This document shows positions 1-5,288 of a stretch of DNA of 5,288 bases, piece after piece. The stretch is taken from the IMG/VR virus record IMGVR_UViG_3300017613_001751, positions 1 through 5,288 of that record. One strand, written 5' to 3'. The stretch is from a virus. The notes below the pieces were generated by a model that was not told the origin of the DNA, did not search any database, and saw only the letters and a list, made by a program, of their open reading frames with translations. Both the position numbers and the translations under genes were made by a program. Numbering within the stretch: position 1 is the first letter of the stretch; every line of letters begins with the position of its first letter.

Positions 1-121
1 ACTACATACCGAAAAACAAAAAAACACACAACTATTACACGAAACAGCAAAAGAATACGGAGATATATCACAAGCTAAAGAAAACATACGAAAACTTAAA
101 GAATCCACCTACAATCACAAA
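1..121. repeat. Terminal redundancy copy 1, identical to 5168-5288; assembly overlap of a circular genome
   Basis: Base-by-base comparison shows 1-121 equals 5168-5288 with no mismatch. The repeat lies inside the Rep reading frame, which stays open across the junction. Confidence 0.95.
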
Positions 122-166
122 CTAAAAACAACATTCAAACAAACATCACAAAACAAAAAACTATGA
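1..166 (+). CDS. 3' end of the Rep (VP4-like) gene, continuing 4236-5288 across the circular junction
   Basis: Codons are phased from position 2 and read LHTEKQKNTQLLHETAKEYGDISQAKENIRKLKESTYNHKLKTTFKQTSQNKKL, then stop TGA at 164-166. This frame is continuous with 4236-5288 once 5168-5288 is collapsed onto 1-121. The stop overlaps the capsid start as ATGA (163-166). Confidence 0.9.
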   Translation, partial: LHTEKQKNTQLLHETAKEYGDISQAKENIRKLKESTYNHKLKTTFKQTSQNKKL

Positions 167-1812
167 TCACACAACCACGACAAAGAATGAGGAACGCCTC
201 ACCAGCAAATCCTAAAAAAAACTCATTCGACTTATCAAATTACTGGACAGGTTCCGGACAAATAGGTAAACTAATACCAATACGATGGGACGATGTAACA
301 CCAGATTCACACTGGAAAATAAAAACAAACTGCCTAATTAAACTAGCACCAGTACTATCACCATTTATGCACAGAATAGACGCATACATACACACATTCT
401 GGGTACCATACAGACTATGTATGCCAAAATTATCACAAACATATGCAGACTGGGAAAGTTTCATACAAGGTGATCCAAACAATGTACATTCAAACGATGA
501 AATGCCAGTAGTACCATTAAACGAAGCACAAAAATCATATTATTACGAAGGAACACTAGCTAATTACCTGGGATTACCTAAAACAGACTCAGGAGATACA
601 ATTAACGCAGCAGCAGACCAAGAATTAAATGCACTACCATTTATAACATATAACTTAATATGGGATGAATACTACAGAAACCCATGGACACAACCAAGAT
701 CATGCGGCCCAGGAACAAGTTGGTTCATATCACTACTTGGAGGAGCAATGACTGCAGATATGCCATATCTATGCGCAATAAGAAACAGATCATATGAAAG
801 AGACTACTTCACAGGAGCATATCCAGAAGCATACGCAGGAGCAAGCACAGACGTGCAGCTTGATATAGATATATACGGAAATCCATCAGATGGAACAGCA
901 ATACAGTTTGAAACAACAGCAGGAGGAGCACCAACTGCGGGAGATACGCAAATGAATGCAAGTAGAGCATTCCAAGATTCAACAGGAGTGGCACTACAAT
1001 TCAGGGGAGATACAGATATAGGAGCAGATGCATCACTTGAAATACTAGAATTACGTAGAGCAGAAGCACTAACAAGATTCTTAGAAGCAGAAAACAGAAC
1101 AGGAACCGAACGATACGACGAATGGCTTAAAATAATGTTCGGTGTACAAAATCCAGACTTTAGAGATAATTACCCGAGATACATAGGAGGAGGAAGACAA
1201 GCAATAAATGTAAGCGAAGTAATAAATCCGGGACCCGTATTAACACCATCCACAGACGCAATAAATACACCACAAGGTTACCAAACTGGTCATGCGGTAG
1301 CAGCAGGAGGAAGCGACTATAGTAACTTCCATGCAACAGAACACGGTATACTAATGACTATACTTAGTGTAATACCTAGAACAGCTTATACGGGAGGAAT
1401 TGAAAAGTTCTGGAACAAAACAGACAGAACAGAATTCTATAATCCACACTTCCAAAATATTGGAGATCAAGAAATACTAAGCAAAGAGCTTGGATGGGAT
1501 GGAACAGCAACAGGAACAGGAAACGATGATGTATGGGCTTACGCCCCAAGATTCGCAGAATACAAACATAAACTAAACATAGTATGTGGAGAATACCAAA
1601 GTTCATTAGATTATTGGCATATGAGCAGAATGCACGATAATCAAGACGGAGCTGCAACAGCATTTAGTGGAACATTCCACCAATGCATATATAGTGACGA
1701 TGAAATGATAAGAATATTTGCAGCACAAGGAACAGAACACCACCTTTACATACAAATCTACAACGATATAAAAGCAATATTACCAATGCACGTAACAGAC
1801 ATACCAAAATAA
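163..1812 (+). CDS. Microviridae major capsid protein (VP1 / F-like), 549 aa
   Basis: The N-terminal block NSFDLSNYWTGSGQIGKLIPIRWDDVTPDSHW...HTFWVPYRL matches the SFD.S....t...G.LIPI...EVLPGD...FFVPNRL block I recall from gokushovirus VP1. Also present are RDYFTGAYPE and LRRAEALTRFLEAENRTGTERYDEWLKIMFGVQNPDFRDNYPRYIGGG, which match the LR.A.alQ+w.E...R.G.RY.E....FGV...D.R...PEYLGG core. Third codon positions are strongly A-biased, as in the other genes. The stop is TAA. Confidence 0.97.
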   Translation: MITQPRQRMRNASPANPKKNSFDLSNYWTGSGQIGKLIPIRWDDVTPDSHWKIKTNCLIKLAPVLSPFMHRIDAYIHTFWVPYRLCMPKLSQTYADWESFIQGDPNNVHSNDEMPVVPLNEAQKSYYYEGTLANYLGLPKTDSGDTINAAADQELNALPFITYNLIWDEYYRNPWTQPRSCGPGTSWFISLLGGAMTADMPYLCAIRNRSYERDYFTGAYPEAYAGASTDVQLDIDIYGNPSDGTAIQFETTAGGAPTAGDTQMNASRAFQDSTGVALQFRGDTDIGADASLEILELRRAEALTRFLEAENRTGTERYDEWLKIMFGVQNPDFRDNYPRYIGGGRQAINVSEVINPGPVLTPSTDAINTPQGYQTGHAVAAGGSDYSNFHATEHGILMTILSVIPRTAYTGGIEKFWNKTDRTEFYNPHFQNIGDQEILSKELGWDGTATGTGNDDVWAYAPRFAEYKHKLNIVCGEYQSSLDYWHMSRMHDNQDGAATAFSGTFHQCIYSDDEMIRIFAAQGTEHHLYIQIYNDIKAILPMHVTDIPK

Positions 1813-1819
1813 AACTATC

Positions 1820-2032
1820 ATGGCAATTGACAGAATGAAAGGAAAAAGATGGCTCACAGGAGACACTTACACCACACAAAAAGAAAAAGTATACTGGAAA
1901 GACTATGAAGAAGTATTTCCAGAAGAATATCCAAAAGACTCTACTGTATCATTAACAGTACCAGGACAAGCAATAAGTATCAAAAACTTAATGGACAGAT
2001 ATGAAAAAGGAAGACCCATACCAGTTGAATAG
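1820..2032 (+). CDS. Small protein (70 aa), possibly the N-terminal part of an internal scaffolding (VP3-like) protein
   Basis: The ATG lies 7 nt after the capsid stop. SLTVPGQAISIKNLMDRYEKG resembles, from memory, the SLT.Q....DIN.I...F..TG segment of gokushovirus VP3. It ends at TAG 2030-2032, much shorter than the roughly 150 aa I recall as typical for VP3. Codon usage is A-ending like the neighbouring genes. Confidence 0.6.
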   Translation: MAIDRMKGKRWLTGDTYTTQKEKVYWKDYEEVFPEEYPKDSTVSLTVPGQAISIKNLMDRYEKGRPIPVE

Positions 2033-2279
2033 ACAACAGGTAATAGAAGAAAAATTCGAATCAACTAAATACGATTCATGGAACAACCAAGACCCACTAA
2101 CAGCAAAACACGAAGCAGCAAAAGAATTACTAGAAATCAAAAACAAACAAAATGAAAGAAAGCAAACAGCAAAAGAAATTGCAAAACAGAATGAGGAAAC
2201 AGAAATTGAAGAACTCAGAAAGTTCAAAGAAGAACACGAAAAAACAGAAACAAACAGCATAAATTCCCAAGACCAGTAA
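2001..2279 (+). CDS. Highly charged K/E-rich helical protein (92 aa), either an overlapping gene or the +1-frame continuation of 1820-2032
   Basis: The frame is open from 1992 and overlaps the previous ORF by 32 nt (2001-2032). The product EAAKELLEIKNKQNERKQTAKEIAKQNEETEIEELRKFKEEHEK is coiled-coil-like, as expected for a scaffold. It has no separate upstream signal. The stop is TAA at 2277-2279. Confidence 0.55.
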   Translation: MKKEDPYQLNRQQVIEEKFESTKYDSWNNQDPLTAKHEAAKELLEIKNKQNERKQTAKEIAKQNEETEIEELRKFKEEHEKTETNSINSQDQ

Positions 2280-2280
2280 C

Positions 2281-2310
2281 ACGCGCACGCGCAAAATGCA
2301 CACGCACACG
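2281..2310. repeat. Short CG-rich tandem hexamers: ACGCGC x2 (2281-2292) and GCACAC x2 plus G (2298-2310)
   Basis: Read directly as acgcgcacgcgc aaaat gcacacgcacacg. The CACACG core recurs at 2473-2478, with AACACG at 2499-2504. Confidence 0.8.
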
Positions 2311-2320
2311 AAAACTGAAA

Positions 2321-2336
2321 ATGAAAGGAATTTCAT
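2321..2336. repeat. Hairpin: 6-bp stem ATGAAA/TTTCAT with loop GGAA
   Basis: Positions 2321-2326 pair perfectly with 2331-2336. Confidence 0.6.
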
Positions 2337-2344
2337 GCTTAAAA

Positions 2345-2382
2345 AGGATCGGGGAAATACAACATTGTAAATCCCTGATCCT
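2345..2382. repeat. Long imperfect hairpin (38 nt)
   Basis: AGGATCGGGGA (2345-2355) pairs with TCCCTGATCCT (2372-2382), giving 11 bp that include one G-T pair. After a 2x2 A/A internal loop, TACAA (2358-2362) pairs with TTGTA (2365-2369), although the apical pairs must open to leave a workable loop. Confidence 0.8.
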
Positions 2383-2399
2383 CAACAAAGTGTCAGTTA

Positions 2400-2426
2400 G
2401 CACTAATATAACAAGTAGTATAGTGC
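2400..2426. repeat. Weak hairpin: GCACTA/TAGTGC with a 15-nt loop
   Basis: Positions 2400-2405 are the reverse complement of 2421-2426. The large loop makes this marginal. Confidence 0.35.
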
Positions 2427-2466
2427 AAAAAACACAAATAAAATCGGCAAGCAAAGCTTTATAAAC

Positions 2467-2504
2467 TGTCCGCACACGTACACATAAAAATGTGTCCGAA
2501 CACG
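2467..2504. repeat. 12-nt direct repeat pair TGTCCG(C/A)ACACG (2467-2478 and 2493-2504) embracing a hairpin at 2477-2498
   Basis: The two copies match at 11 of 12 positions and start 26 nt apart. Between and overlapping them, CGTACACAT pairs with ATGTGTCCG (9 positions, one mismatch) around an AAAA loop. The second copy also forms TCCG-AACA-CGGA (2495-2506). Confidence 0.75.
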
Positions 2505-2511
2505 GAACCAG

Positions 2512-2559
2512 TTTATGCCTTTCTCCTCCAAATTTTGATAATTTGGAGTTCGGCATAAA
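2512..2559. repeat. Two-tier hairpin 32 nt upstream of the VP2 start
   Basis: The outer stem TTTATGCC (2512-2519) pairs with GGCATAAA (2552-2559), 8 bp. The inner stem CTCCAAATT (2526-2534) pairs with AATTTGGAG (2540-2548), 9 bp perfect, with loop TTGAT. The tiers are separated by an asymmetric internal loop of 6 and 3 nt. An A-run follows on the + strand rather than a T-run. Confidence 0.85.
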
Positions 2560-2590
2560 AAAATAGATTTTAACGCAAAAACAAGAAACT

Positions 2591-3460
2591 ATGAGCAGCT
2601 GGGGAGCAGCATTAATGAATGCAGGATCCAACCTAGGATCAACATTCTATACAACAGCATGGAACAAAAGAGAATCACAAAGACAAAGAGATTGGAATGA
2701 AGCCATGTGGCACAAAAGCAACGAATACAATTCACCTGCAGCACAAATGGAAAGATTTAGAGAAGCAGGATTAAATCCAAACATGATATATGGACAAGGA
2801 AATCCCGGAAATGCAGGACAAGTTCCATCATATGAAAGAGCATCAATGCAAACACCTAATATAGATCTATTAGGATCATACATGGGATACAAAAAAATGG
2901 GTGTCGAAATATCCAATATGGAAGCAGACACCCAACTAAAAGAAAGAGACCAAACAATAAAATTCCTACAAGCAATAGGACTAGAAGTAGATAACGAACA
3001 ACAAGCATTAAATCTACTGAAATCACTAGAACTATATGATACAGACGTAGAAAAAGAAAAATTACAACTTGTATTACTTGGAATACAACAAACACTAGGA
3101 AATAAACAAATTACACATCAACAAATACTAAACGAAAAAGAAACAATAAACCTGATGTATCAGGAATTCGAAAAAACATTAAACCTAACAAAAACATACG
3201 AAGAAATTAAATCAACACAACTAGCAAACAGAATGACCGAAGAAGAATGGAAATATTATAAACGCACCGGAATGTTACTAGGTAACAAACCACTATATCA
3301 ACTATTCGCAAACCTTATATCAGGTGAAAGCATCGCAAGTTCAAAAATATCAAATGCAGTCAAAATAGCAACAGGACAAGCAGCAACTAAAAAAGGTACA
3401 ATACAAATGCCAAAAGGAACAAGAACAATAAGACATCCAAACTCAACAAGATGGCAATAG
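2591..3460 (+). CDS. DNA pilot / minor capsid protein (VP2 / H-like), 289 aa
   Basis: The N-terminal Gly/Ser/Ala-rich segment is followed by NKRESQRQRDWNEAMWHKSNEYNSPAAQMERFREAGLNPNMIYGQG. This matches the conserved ...N.a.Q....R...AGLNP.l..G block I recall from non-phiX Microviridae VP2. The C-terminal half is long, heptad-like and Q/E/K/L-rich, as expected for a coiled-coil DNA-delivery tube protein. The stop is TAG. Confidence 0.85.
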   Translation: MSSWGAALMNAGSNLGSTFYTTAWNKRESQRQRDWNEAMWHKSNEYNSPAAQMERFREAGLNPNMIYGQGNPGNAGQVPSYERASMQTPNIDLLGSYMGYKKMGVEISNMEADTQLKERDQTIKFLQAIGLEVDNEQQALNLLKSLELYDTDVEKEKLQLVLLGIQQTLGNKQITHQQILNEKETINLMYQEFEKTLNLTKTYEEIKSTQLANRMTEEEWKYYKRTGMLLGNKPLYQLFANLISGESIASSKISNAVKIATGQAATKKGTIQMPKGTRTIRHPNSTRWQ

Positions 3461-3487
3461 TGCCATATAACAATAAAAACTATAAGC

Positions 3488-3751
3488 ATGAAAAACGAAA
3501 ATCAAAAACTAGAAATCCAAAAAGAAGACTTCGTACCAGACAACCTAACTTCAATAAAACAAGAACAAGCTAAAAAAGACCTACAATGCATGGAAGACCT
3601 AGACAAGATCAAAACACCAATAGAAGCAAAAATGTATAGCACTACAGTCTGGACATACAGAAATAAATCATACAGAGAATTCGTAAATAAAATGGATCAA
3701 AAAGCAAAAGAAGAACTATTCAAAATTGTAAATAAAAAATTAGAACTATGA
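3488..3751 (+). CDS. Hypothetical small protein (87 aa)
   Basis: Codon usage is A-ending like the known genes, and the ORF fills the gap after VP2. Its TGA stop (3749-3751) overlaps the next ATG (3748-3750). I recognise no family motif. Confidence 0.6.
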   Translation: MKNENQKLEIQKEDFVPDNLTSIKQEQAKKDLQCMEDLDKIKTPIEAKMYSTTVWTYRNKSYREFVNKMDQKAKEELFKIVNKKLEL

Positions 3752-3921
3752 ACATTATAAAAACAATCGTAAGAGCAGTATGGCCGATAGTATACAAAGT
3801 ACTAGAAAACTATGCGGACAGAACAGACACAGAAATAGACGACATAGCAGTAGAAGCAGCAAACGCAGGAATACAAGAATGGCTCGATGATACAAAAGAC
3901 GACACAAACTTTGAAACATGA
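3748..3921 (+). CDS. Hypothetical small protein (57 aa), absent from the supplied ORF track
   Basis: My translation is MNIIKTIVRAVWPIVYKVLENYADRTDTEIDDIAVEAANAGIQEWLDDTKDDTNFET. The start forms an ATGA overlap with the upstream ORF, and the stop TGA (3919-3921) overlaps the ATG at 3918. Codons are A-ending. The ORF exactly fills 3752-3917, which would otherwise be non-coding. Confidence 0.55.
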   Translation: MNIIKTIVRAVWPIVYKVLENYADRTDTEIDDIAVEAANAGIQEWLDDTKDDTNFET

Positions 3922-3924
3922 TAC

Positions 3925-4236
3925 ATGAAAACATCACAATCGAAGAATATACAAGACTCAAGCCTACAACTGACTCTATTCGCAAACTTACAATCAAACA
4001 AGAACGACTTATCAAACTTATTAGAACAGGTCGCTCAGTACGAGGAATACATTATAAACTCAAAAACATTCCCATACCTTATAAAAATCGAGAAACAAAT
4101 TATAGCTCTATGTGACAAAGAAAATAGATGCCTTCAAATACTAAGACAAGGCAGAAGCTATGGAATAAAAAAAACACACAGAAAACCATTAAAAATCAAA
4201 ATCAAAGAAGACAGACAAACAATAGAAGCAGTATAA
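3925..4236 (+). CDS. Hypothetical small protein (103 aa) with a basic C-terminus
   Basis: The stop TAA (4234-4236) overlaps the Rep ATG (4236-4238) as TAATG. Codon third positions are A-rich (cta, tta, caa, tca, aca) like the confirmed genes, unlike the competing 3918-4115 frame. The C-terminal sequence is GRSYGIKKTHRKPLKIKIKEDRQ. Confidence 0.55.
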   Translation: MKTSQSKNIQDSSLQLTLFANLQSNKNDLSNLLEQVAQYEEYIINSKTFPYLIKIEKQIIALCDKENRCLQILRQGRSYGIKKTHRKPLKIKIKEDRQTIEAV

Positions 4237-5288
4237 TGGAATGCCACTCACCAATATGGATCACAAAAGAAAATCTACTAGAAAAAGGGCAATACATACC
4301 TTGCGGAAAATGTATATATTGCCTAGAAACAAAACGATCTATATGGACATTCAGAATACTACAAGAGTTAAAGGTGGCGGAGACCGCAAGATTCGTCACT
4401 TTAACATACGAAGATGAAAAACTACCTTACATAGCACAATGGGGAGACAAAACAACAGAAATAAATATACTCACAAAACTAAATCCAACAAACAAATTAT
4501 ACAACCAACCAATACAACTATTACCAACACTTAACAAAAATGATCTATCACAATTCATAAAAAAATTAAGATCTAAAATATACAGAGATCAACTACCAAA
4601 CATAACAAGCCCAAACAAAGACTTTAGAGATGAAGCTAACAGATACCTTAAAAAATCAGAGAAAACAGGAAAATGGAGCCCTAAACTACGTTATTTCGCA
4701 TGTGGCGAATACGGAAGCAAAGGAAATAGACCTCATTTCCATATAATAATATTTAACGTACCTTTAAGGTATTATAAATACGATACAATACACAATGAGT
4801 GGTACAGTAATACACTAGATGAAATATGGGGAAACGGAAACGTACATATAGGAACAGTAGAAAGAGGTTCAGCACACTATACAGCAAAATACACAATAAA
4901 ATCACTATTCGACAAATATGACCCTAATGATCCAAGAACAAAACCATATGCAGTAATGAGTAGAAACCCTGGCATAGGAAACAACTATATAAACAATGAA
5001 ACTAAAACTTATTTTAATAACACTCAAAATAATTATACTCGTCTTAAAAGTGGCCATGCCCAACCAATTGGGCGCTACTACAAAGATAAAATTTGGCCGG
5101 AAGAAAAAATCACAGATGGGCTTTCAATATGGCCAAAAGAAAGAAACAATGCATCAAAAAAATGTATACTACATACCGAAAAACAAAAAAACACACAACT
5201 ATTACACGAAACAGCAAAAGAATACGGAGATATATCACAAGCTAAAGAAAACATACGAAAACTTAAAGAATCCACCTACAATCACAAA
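4236..5288 (+). CDS. Replication initiation protein (VP4 / A-like HUH rolling-circle endonuclease); open to the window end, wraps to stop at 166; 365 aa in total
   Basis: My translation has no in-frame stop from 4236 to 5288. It begins MECHSPIWITKENLLEKGQYIPCGKCIYCLETKRSIW, a Cys/His N-terminus typical of microvirus VP4. Motif 1 is FVTLTY (4392-4409). Motif 2, the HUH motif, is RPHFHIIIFN (HFHIIIF at 4734-4754). Motif 3 is HYTAKYTIK with paired Tyr residues (YTAKYT at 4878-4895). MSRNPGIG and PIGRYYKDKI follow. Confidence 0.95.
   Translation, partial: MECHSPIWITKENLLEKGQYIPCGKCIYCLETKRSIWTFRILQELKVAETARFVTLTYEDEKLPYIAQWGDKTTEINILTKLNPTNKLYNQPIQLLPTLNKNDLSQFIKKLRSKIYRDQLPNITSPNKDFRDEANRYLKKSEKTGKWSPKLRYFACGEYGSKGNRPHFHIIIFNVPLRYYKYDTIHNEWYSNTLDEIWGNGNVHIGTVERGSAHYTAKYTIKSLFDKYDPNDPRTKPYAVMSRNPGIGNNYINNETKTYFNNTQNNYTRLKSGHAQPIGRYYKDKIWPEEKITDGLSIWPKERNNASKKCILHTEKQKNTQLLHETAKEYGDISQAKENIRKLKESTYNHK
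5168..5288. repeat. Terminal redundancy copy 2, identical to 1-121
   Basis: Same comparison as for copy 1. The unit genome length is therefore 5167 nt. Confidence 0.95.

Follow-up and report, generated by a model that had tools for sequence, protein, structure and literature searches.

An origin-type hairpin lying opposite to the genes in the intergenic island of a gokushovirus-like microvirus

Genes and structured features of the genome

The window analysed here, a 5288-nt stretch of DNA covering positions 1 to 5288 of IMG/VR record IMGVR_UViG_3300017613_001751, is one circular microvirus genome of 5167 nt with a 121-nt terminal redundancy (1-121 = 5168-5288). All recognisable genes lie on the + strand, and the gaps between them run from -32 to 27 nt except at 2280-2590, where the gap is 311 nt. 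Given the lack of Shine-Dalgarno sequences, the host is possibly a Bacteroidota species. The genes, with their Pfam and PHROG matches, are as follows.

163-1812 (+): VP1 major capsid gene (Pfam Phage_F, 3.5e-58; phrog_514)
1820-2032 and 2001-2279 (+): two small ORFs, the second of 92 aa
2280-2590: the single long intergenic region
2591-3460 (+): VP2 DNA pilot protein gene (phrog_8689, 1.4e-21), directly downstream of the intergenic region
3488-4236 (+): three small ORFs lying between these positions
4236-5288 (+): Rep (VP4) gene (PF23343, phrog_942), continuing across the circle junction to position 166, with the HUH motif HFH and two tyrosines in YTAKY (YxxxY type)

In order to assess whether the intergenic region is unusually structured, we folded it and compared the energies with those of shuffled controls. 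As ssDNA the + strand gave -48.8 kcal/mol against -24.8 +/- 3.8 for shuffles (z -6.4, 0/100), whilst the - strand gave -49.8 kcal/mol (z -7.5) and folding as RNA gave a z of -6.3. Amongst 311-nt windows tiled over the genome those over this region were the most stable (-49.4 kcal/mol against a mean of -18.9, sd 8.5). The following features were identified in addition to the conserved hairpin described below.

2279-2310 (+): two alternating purine/pyrimidine CG-rich repeats (ACACGCGCACGCGCA ... TGCACACGCACACG) of the CGCACACG type, resembling iterons or Z-DNA-prone tracts
2321-2336: weak hairpin H1 (-2.9 kcal/mol), with a different hairpin at this position in relatives
2345-2382: strong hairpin H2 (-10.7 kcal/mol), 8 nt from the flank of the conserved hairpin
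2461-2516: compound hairpin (-12.6 kcal/mol) of which 2477-2498 (-4.4 kcal/mol) is the tip, its arms carrying the direct repeats TGTCCGCACACG and TGTCCGAACACG
2512-2565: strong hairpin 2512-2559 (-11.3 kcal/mol) followed by an A run, about 30 nt before the VP2 start; a hairpin followed by an A run recurs at this position in relatives, with unrelated sequence

The observation behind the original prediction, that of one highly structured non-coding island in an otherwise packed genome, was confirmed, although with some adjustment of detail. The four hairpins that had been called strong (2321-2336, 2345-2382, 2477-2498 and 2512-2559) all exist, but 2321-2336 is weak and 2477-2498 is part of the larger structure. 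The CG-rich repeats and the direct repeat pair are real, and all six CGCACACG-like 8-mers of the genome lie here, on the + strand, against 1.4 expected. The claimed departure from the A-rich composition is modest, with A at 41% here against 46% elsewhere and T at 22% against 19%.

We next asked whether the region encodes a protein or RNA. The antisense ORF 2224-2631 and the + strand ORF 2321-2464 (135 and 47 aa) matched no Pfam or PHROG family, and in relatives they matched only through the translated conserved DNA motif described below, whilst the length of the gap varies from 75 to 490 nt. Scans of the window with Rfam (E up to 10) and for tRNAs found nothing meaningful. A coding function for the region is therefore considered very unlikely. 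A role in transcription, as a terminator for the VP1 operon and a promoter or leader for VP2, also appears unlikely. The region lies upstream of VP2, where the original prediction had placed probable promoters, the hairpin, A run and A-rich leader before VP2 recur in relatives, and promoter-like matches lie at 2397-2424 and 2535-2564. However, promoter-like matches genome-wide numbered 16 against 16.8 expected by chance, no terminator-like site was predicted within 2280-2590 on either strand, no + strand hairpin is followed by a T run (H2 has TTTTT only on the - strand, and this is not conserved in relatives), and none of this explains the deeply conserved motif.

A covarying hairpin family in microviruses

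A blastn search of the region against GenBank phages matched only about 40 nt (2390-2429), in dozens of Microviridae records, in unannotated intergenic DNA and on the strand opposite to the query, whilst a whole-genome blastn against the same phages found only short coding matches. In order to recover relatives of the window we used VP1 homologues and their contigs, which yielded L109 (VP1 97% identical, from a different JGI sample), L110 (69%, ENA) and L111 (53%, Logan). A search of IMG/VR with the single VP1 protein found one distant locus, and a metagenome scan with the VP1 alignment added few clade members. The intergenic regions upstream of VP2 in L109, L110 and L111 share only the motif TGTCAGTTAGCACTAATATATCAAGTAGTATAGTGCA with the window, such that only a stretch of roughly 37 nt is conserved across the four closest intergenic regions. 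The four hairpins highlighted in the original prediction are conserved only in the 97% relative or within a sub-lineage, the compound hairpin 2461-2516 only in the 97% relative. The deeply conserved element is instead a weak hairpin with its flank, which may be the additional weak hairpin that the original prediction mentioned without coordinates.

2400-2426 (-): origin-type hairpin, with stem GCACTA (2400-2405) pairing with TAGTGC (2421-2426) and a 15-nt loop (2406-2420) reading TACTACTTGTTATAT on the - strand
2408-2416 (-): predicted nick-site core ACTTG|TTAT, with the predicted Rep cleavage between the - strand bases opposite 2412 and 2411
2390-2395 (-): conserved flank GTGTCA, reading TGACAC on the - strand, 3' of the hairpin

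Two scans of IMG/VR, one with an exact and one with a looser pattern, returned about 165 microvirus-sized contigs, and overall the hairpin family was found in more than 200 microvirus genomes, including SpV4, Chp2 and phiMH2K. Read on the motif strand the consensus is TGGTGTCAA, NN, stem, loop ATATATCAAGTAG, stem. Stem sequences differ widely but stay complementary, for example GCACTAAT/ATTAGTGC, GGGGGGATTC/GAATCCCCCC, GGGAACCAAT/ATTGGTTCCC and GCATATAT/ATATATGC. RNAalifold found compensatory changes in 8 of 8 pairs on an independent MAFFT alignment, whilst on an alignment of 18 instances, which was itself fitted to the model, 7 of 8 pairs showed them, none of 500 shuffles reached the observed score and slid controls collapsed (at or below 0.09 against 0.53). 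A covariance model (R1) built from 30 genomes outside the window's clade hit the window once, at 2387-2429 (37 bits, E 1.7e-6). The window thus carries the features by which we define this family, namely the flank GTGTCA, a covarying stem of 6-10 bp, a loop containing ATATCAAG as read on the motif strand, and an intergenic position. A dif/XerCD integration site was considered by eye, since some gokushoviruses carry dif motifs in non-coding regions (PMC7062461), and is very unlikely, since here the stems vary and covary around a conserved loop whereas dif sites have conserved arms around a variable centre.

Read on the other strand the family consensus is stem, CTACTTGATATAT, stem, NN, TTGACACC, the loop reading CTACTTGATAT and the 3' flank TGACAC. 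The phiX174 record annotates the origin of viral-strand synthesis at 4306 inside CAACTTG^ATATTAATAACACTATAGACCAC. On the coding strand the family consensus, CTACTTGATATATTAGTGCTAATTGACACC, shares 16 of 30 positions with this origin, including the exact 9-mer ACTTGATAT around the annotated nick and GAC at identical spacing from CTTGATAT; the window itself shares 13 of 30, its TGACAC aligning with GAC of the phiX174 origin at the same offset. The invariant parts of the family are the loop CTTGATAT and the flank TGACAC (the flank being invariant in 100 of 102 family members), and these are the segments reportedly essential in phiX174. In the window the nick core is present with one mismatch as ACTTGTTAT, which is also the variant found in SpV4, and it is the only ACTTGNTAT in the genome, whilst the exact ACTTGATAT is present in L109, L110 and two further relatives, L113 and L245. 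The window's stem is short (6 bp, -3.7 kcal/mol), and this and the one-base difference of its loop from the consensus nick site count against the interpretation given below.

Orientation of the hairpin relative to the genes

The strand carrying the nick core is the coding strand in 105 of 105 hairpin-bearing contigs of the exact-pattern scan, in all of the roughly 55 hairpin-context contigs of the looser scan, in 59 of 60 sampled GenBank records, and in SpV4, Chp2 and phiMH2K. In the window, where all genes are on the + strand, it is the - strand, and no standard-orientation copy exists. Eight candidate same-strand pattern hits (L054, L214, L186, L204, L222, L228, L233 and L236) were treated as chance matches, since on inspection L054 had no hairpin or flank and L214 lay inside a 458-aa ORF with a weak score of 20.8 bits, whilst the other six showed no hairpin context in their sequence.

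The same orientation and position were found in eleven further genomes of the window's VP1 clade, with VP1 39-97% identical to the window's, these being L109, L110, L111, L113, L114, L245, L246, L247 (an 18-kb contig of more than three tandem genome copies), L248, L252 and L253. Samples containing these phages include JGI 3300017598 and 3300017527, SRR10418763 and SRR26113677. An unrelated GenBank genome, MH992221.1 (VP1 33% identical), is also inverted, at 53.5 bits. Hairpins can cause inversion chimeras in MDA-amplified viromes, but an assembly or amplification artefact is highly improbable here given that the orientation appears in 13 genomes from at least nine samples and four data sources (JGI, ENA, Logan and IMG/VR), with divergent flanks and a tandem concatemer, and that the position of the hairpin within the gap differs systematically between the two orientations. 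We regard the inverted orientation as real and under selection. Two members of the window's VP1 clade, L112 and L119, have the standard orientation, again just upstream of VP2. A neighbour-joining VP1 tree, without support values, placed MH992221.1 among standard genomes and L113 beside its apparent sisters L112 and L119, which implies at least two and probably three flips.

In the standard genomes L092, L119 and L112 the order on the coding strand is upstream gene, structured DNA, origin, VP2, whilst in inverted genomes (MH992221.1, L113 and, less cleanly, the window's sub-clade) it is upstream gene, origin, structured DNA, VP2. This is what inversion of the whole cis-acting block would give, although the extent of such a block rests on position and not on sequence, since alignment of an inverted intergenic region (L254) with standard ones (L092 and L010) detected nothing apart from the 41-nt motif, in reverse. 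A search for inverted repeats flanking the region that could mediate inversion found only weak pairs (I2, 72% complementary). Within the window's sub-clade the + strand order is two alternating purine/pyrimidine repeats directly after the stop codon, carried as (GCACGCACGC)x2 in L245, L246, L248, L252 and L114, followed by H1, H2, the inverted origin, variable hairpins, a hairpin followed by an A run, and VP2. The H2 core GGGGAnnTAC...GTAAnTCCCT is conserved in L245, L246 and L252, with 14 pairs, of which 3 show compensatory changes, in the outer stem, and an invariant G.T wobble on the + strand.

Interpretation and comparison with known systems

We suggest that the 311-nt island is the replication-control region of a gokushovirus-like microvirus and that its functional core, the hairpin at 2400-2426 with its flank at 2390-2395, is the lineage's copy of the viral-strand origin at which the HUH/two-tyrosine Rep would nick the supercoiled replicative form to start rolling-circle replication. 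By homology with phiX174 (CAACTTG^ATAT...GAC) the cut would fall at ACTTG|TTAT, within the predicted - strand target CTACTTGTTATATTAGTGCTAACTGACACT. In this view Rep would nick the - strand, synthesis would run head-on to transcription, and the displaced, circularised and packaged strand would be antisense to the mRNAs. We place a probability of about 0.55 on this reading as a whole; that the element is the functional origin homologue is likely, whilst antisense packaging has roughly even odds. Our data show the structure of the region, its membership of the conserved hairpin family, the similarity to the phiX174 origin, and the inverted orientation with its recurrence in independent assemblies, whereas cleavage by Rep and support of rolling-circle replication at this site, the identity of the packaged strand and the roles of the accessory elements, including any recognition by host priming proteins, are inferences. 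The surrounding hairpins and CGCACACG repeats are lineage-specific accessories that most plausibly aid cruciform extrusion or Rep binding, and priming of the complementary strand.

Nothing in the microvirus life cycle obviously forbids antisense packaging, since incoming ssDNA must be made double-stranded before any expression, whichever strand it is. The recurrence of flips favours this reading, as a flip needs no change in Rep specificity. Several observations, however, count against it. Four-fold sites are 76% A in the window and 73% A in the standard relative L112, and whole-genome skews are likewise A-rich on the coding strand in both orientations, such that composition is uninformative and no strand-specific mutational footprint of a packaging switch is visible. 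The + versus - strand folding energies of the intergenic regions of 11 relatives showed no consistent sign, the G.T wobbles of H2 on the + strand would be A.C mismatches on the - strand, hinting that at least this element folds in + sense DNA or RNA, and head-on replication and transcription would carry a cost. The observations on composition, folding and H2 leave room for an alternative, which we consider unlikely, in which the hairpin is the true origin homologue but the coding strand is still packaged, either because a second, unrecognised nick site on the + strand is used or because the hairpin acts as a double-stranded or cruciform binding site and not as the cleavage site. A cryptic origin inside a coding region is conceivable, given that in phiX-type phages the origin lies inside a gene. 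Nevertheless, no second copy or ACTTGNTAT exists on the + strand, the loop and flank stay under the same sequence constraint in inverted as in standard genomes, and this model needs a new origin or a new Rep specificity in each of at least two independent flips.

The original interpretation, that the island is a candidate complementary-strand origin, packaging or transcription control region, was partly supported. It correctly identified a highly structured non-coding control island concerned with replication, but its emphasis on the four hairpins was not supported, the conserved element being a homologue of the viral-strand (Rep nick) origin and not of a complementary-strand origin, and it missed the orientation of this element. 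That the island is mainly a complementary-strand origin, with folded hairpins on the packaged strand recruiting host primase, PriA or RNA polymerase, remains doubtful, although it could be true of the accessory hairpins alongside the nick origin. Folding is exceptional on both strands, structured DNA always accompanies the origin in inverted genomes, and such a role has been proposed for conserved intergenic hairpins, noted as being of unknown role, in other microvirus clades (PMC9865509). Conversely, the hairpins are not conserved beyond sub-lineages, and the standard relative L112 has a 75-nt gap that holds only the origin hairpin, so extra hairpins are not universally required. The original remark that no such element is defined for gokushovirus-like phages also needs qualifying, since an origin-like hairpin family is present in SpV4, Chp2, phiMH2K and hundreds of uncultured microviruses.

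We found no report of this hairpin family or of negative-sense microviruses in the searchable literature, which did not extend to older subscription papers on SpV4, Chp1/2 and phiMH2K. The hairpin gives gokushovirus-like microviruses a concrete candidate for the viral-strand origin, which could anchor genome start and orientation conventions, help in rebooting synthetic genomes and guide Rep biochemistry. What is new in the window is the inverted orientation of an element that is itself widespread and homologous to a known one. If the origin defines the packaged strand, the lineage, comprising at least 12 genomes with at least one independent case in MH992221.1, would be made of negative-sense microviruses within a family described as uniformly positive-sense, and polarity would be an evolvable trait that has flipped repeatedly by inversion of a small cis-acting cassette, as in the mixed polarities of eukaryotic ssDNA viruses. 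If these phages still package the coding strand, the conserved hairpin cannot be the sole determinant of strand displacement, which would be equally informative about microvirus replication.

Complementary-strand origins of ssDNA phages (the phiX174 n'/PriA site, G4 oric and the M13 minus origin) share with the island clusters of stable hairpins in an intergenic region of a packed ssDNA phage genome; the conserved element here matches the viral-strand origin. In the origin stem-loops of CRESS-DNA viruses (circoviruses, geminiviruses and nanoviruses), with a nonanucleotide loop and flanking iterons, the nick site is likewise presented in the loop of a hairpin with short direct repeats nearby (CGCACACG here, for which Rep binding is only a suggestion), and the orientation of the origin defines the virion strand independently of gene orientation, but the loop sequence is unrelated and the Rep is of a different family. 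The intergenic hairpins of the cultured gokushoviruses SpV4 (512-549), Chp2 (2904-2951) and phiMH2K (3298-3341), whose function as origins is also only inferred here, have the same architecture of stem, loop CTACTTG(A/T)T, stem and a TGAYA-type flank, but all three carry the element on the coding strand. Finally, the phiX174 (Bullavirinae) viral-strand origin, the 30-nt gene A protein recognition sequence, shares with the family the nick core, the spacing of GAC and an HUH Rep partner with two tyrosines, but it lies inside gene A, has no covarying hairpin around the nick and is on the coding (virion) strand, whilst in the window the nick core sits in a hairpin loop, in a non-coding region, on the strand opposite to the genes.

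Repeats, hairpins and a promoter-like match around the probable origin

The intergenic elements that accompany the origin hairpin in the window, and the counterparts of one of them in relatives, lie at the following positions:
Window 2282-2310, 2471-2478 and 2497-2504, + strand: CGCACACG-like 8-mers
Window 2345-2382: hairpin H2, with counterparts at about 2813-2850 in L245, about 4500-4535 in L246 and about 3325-3362 in L252 (relatives of the window with the inverted origin)
Window 2397-2424, + strand: sigma-70-like match

All six CGCACACG-like 8-mers of the genome were found in the intergenic region on the + strand, on both sides of the origin hairpin, against 1.4 expected genome-wide, whilst relatives carry (GCACGCACGC)x2 directly after the upstream stop codon. 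These are alternating purine/pyrimidine tracts, and hence could be iterons or Z-DNA-prone sequence. H2 is a second conserved hairpin and lies next to the origin flank: its core GGGGAnnTAC...GTAAnTCCCT is invariant, the outer stem covaries and a G.T wobble on the + strand is conserved. The sigma-70-like match (TTAGCA, 16 nt, TATAGT; 9 of 12 positions) coincides with the origin hairpin on the + strand, although genome-wide such matches are at chance level.

In the GenBank genome MH992221.1 (L254), the CDS annotated as 'hypothetical protein' (record positions 2772-3083) starts inside the origin hairpin and covers about 300 nt of GC-rich, highly structured DNA upstream of the pilot gene, and is probably non-coding.

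Genome ends and contig structure

A 121-nt terminal redundancy (window 1-121 and 5168-5288) shows a circular genome of 5167 nt, in which Rep runs across the junction and its stop codon overlaps the VP1 start (ATGA at 163-166). Amongst the relatives, the 18.4-kb contig L247 (ENA ERZ28669879 ctg32280) consists of more than three head-to-tail copies of a 5.5-kb microvirus genome, and is either a rolling-circle or amplification concatemer, or a long-read assembly of one. In the IMG/VR relative L114 the VP1 reading frame appears split into two ORFs (432-1496 and 1648-2118), reflecting either a frameshift or an assembly error.

Gene leaders and coding-strand composition

A conserved A/T-rich element, AAAAATTTGTAATTAAnGTAAAAAAGTTGTAATATGG, lies immediately upstream of, and includes, the VP2 start codon in the relatives L111, L113, L114 and L245-L248, whilst the window and the relative L110 lack it and have a different A-rich leader. 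Inspection by eye of the sequence upstream of the window's starts at 163, 1820, 2591 and 3488 revealed no Shine-Dalgarno-like sequence preceding any gene. The leaders are A-rich, which could point to a host with SD-independent initiation such as Bacteroidota.

Across all window genes of 200 aa or more, which lie on the + strand, four-fold degenerate sites are 76% A (T 14%, C 6%, G 4%). This bias is not linked to origin orientation. The same extreme coding-strand bias is shared by the relatives L110 (77%) and L112 (73%), but not by more distant microviruses, which are T-rich.
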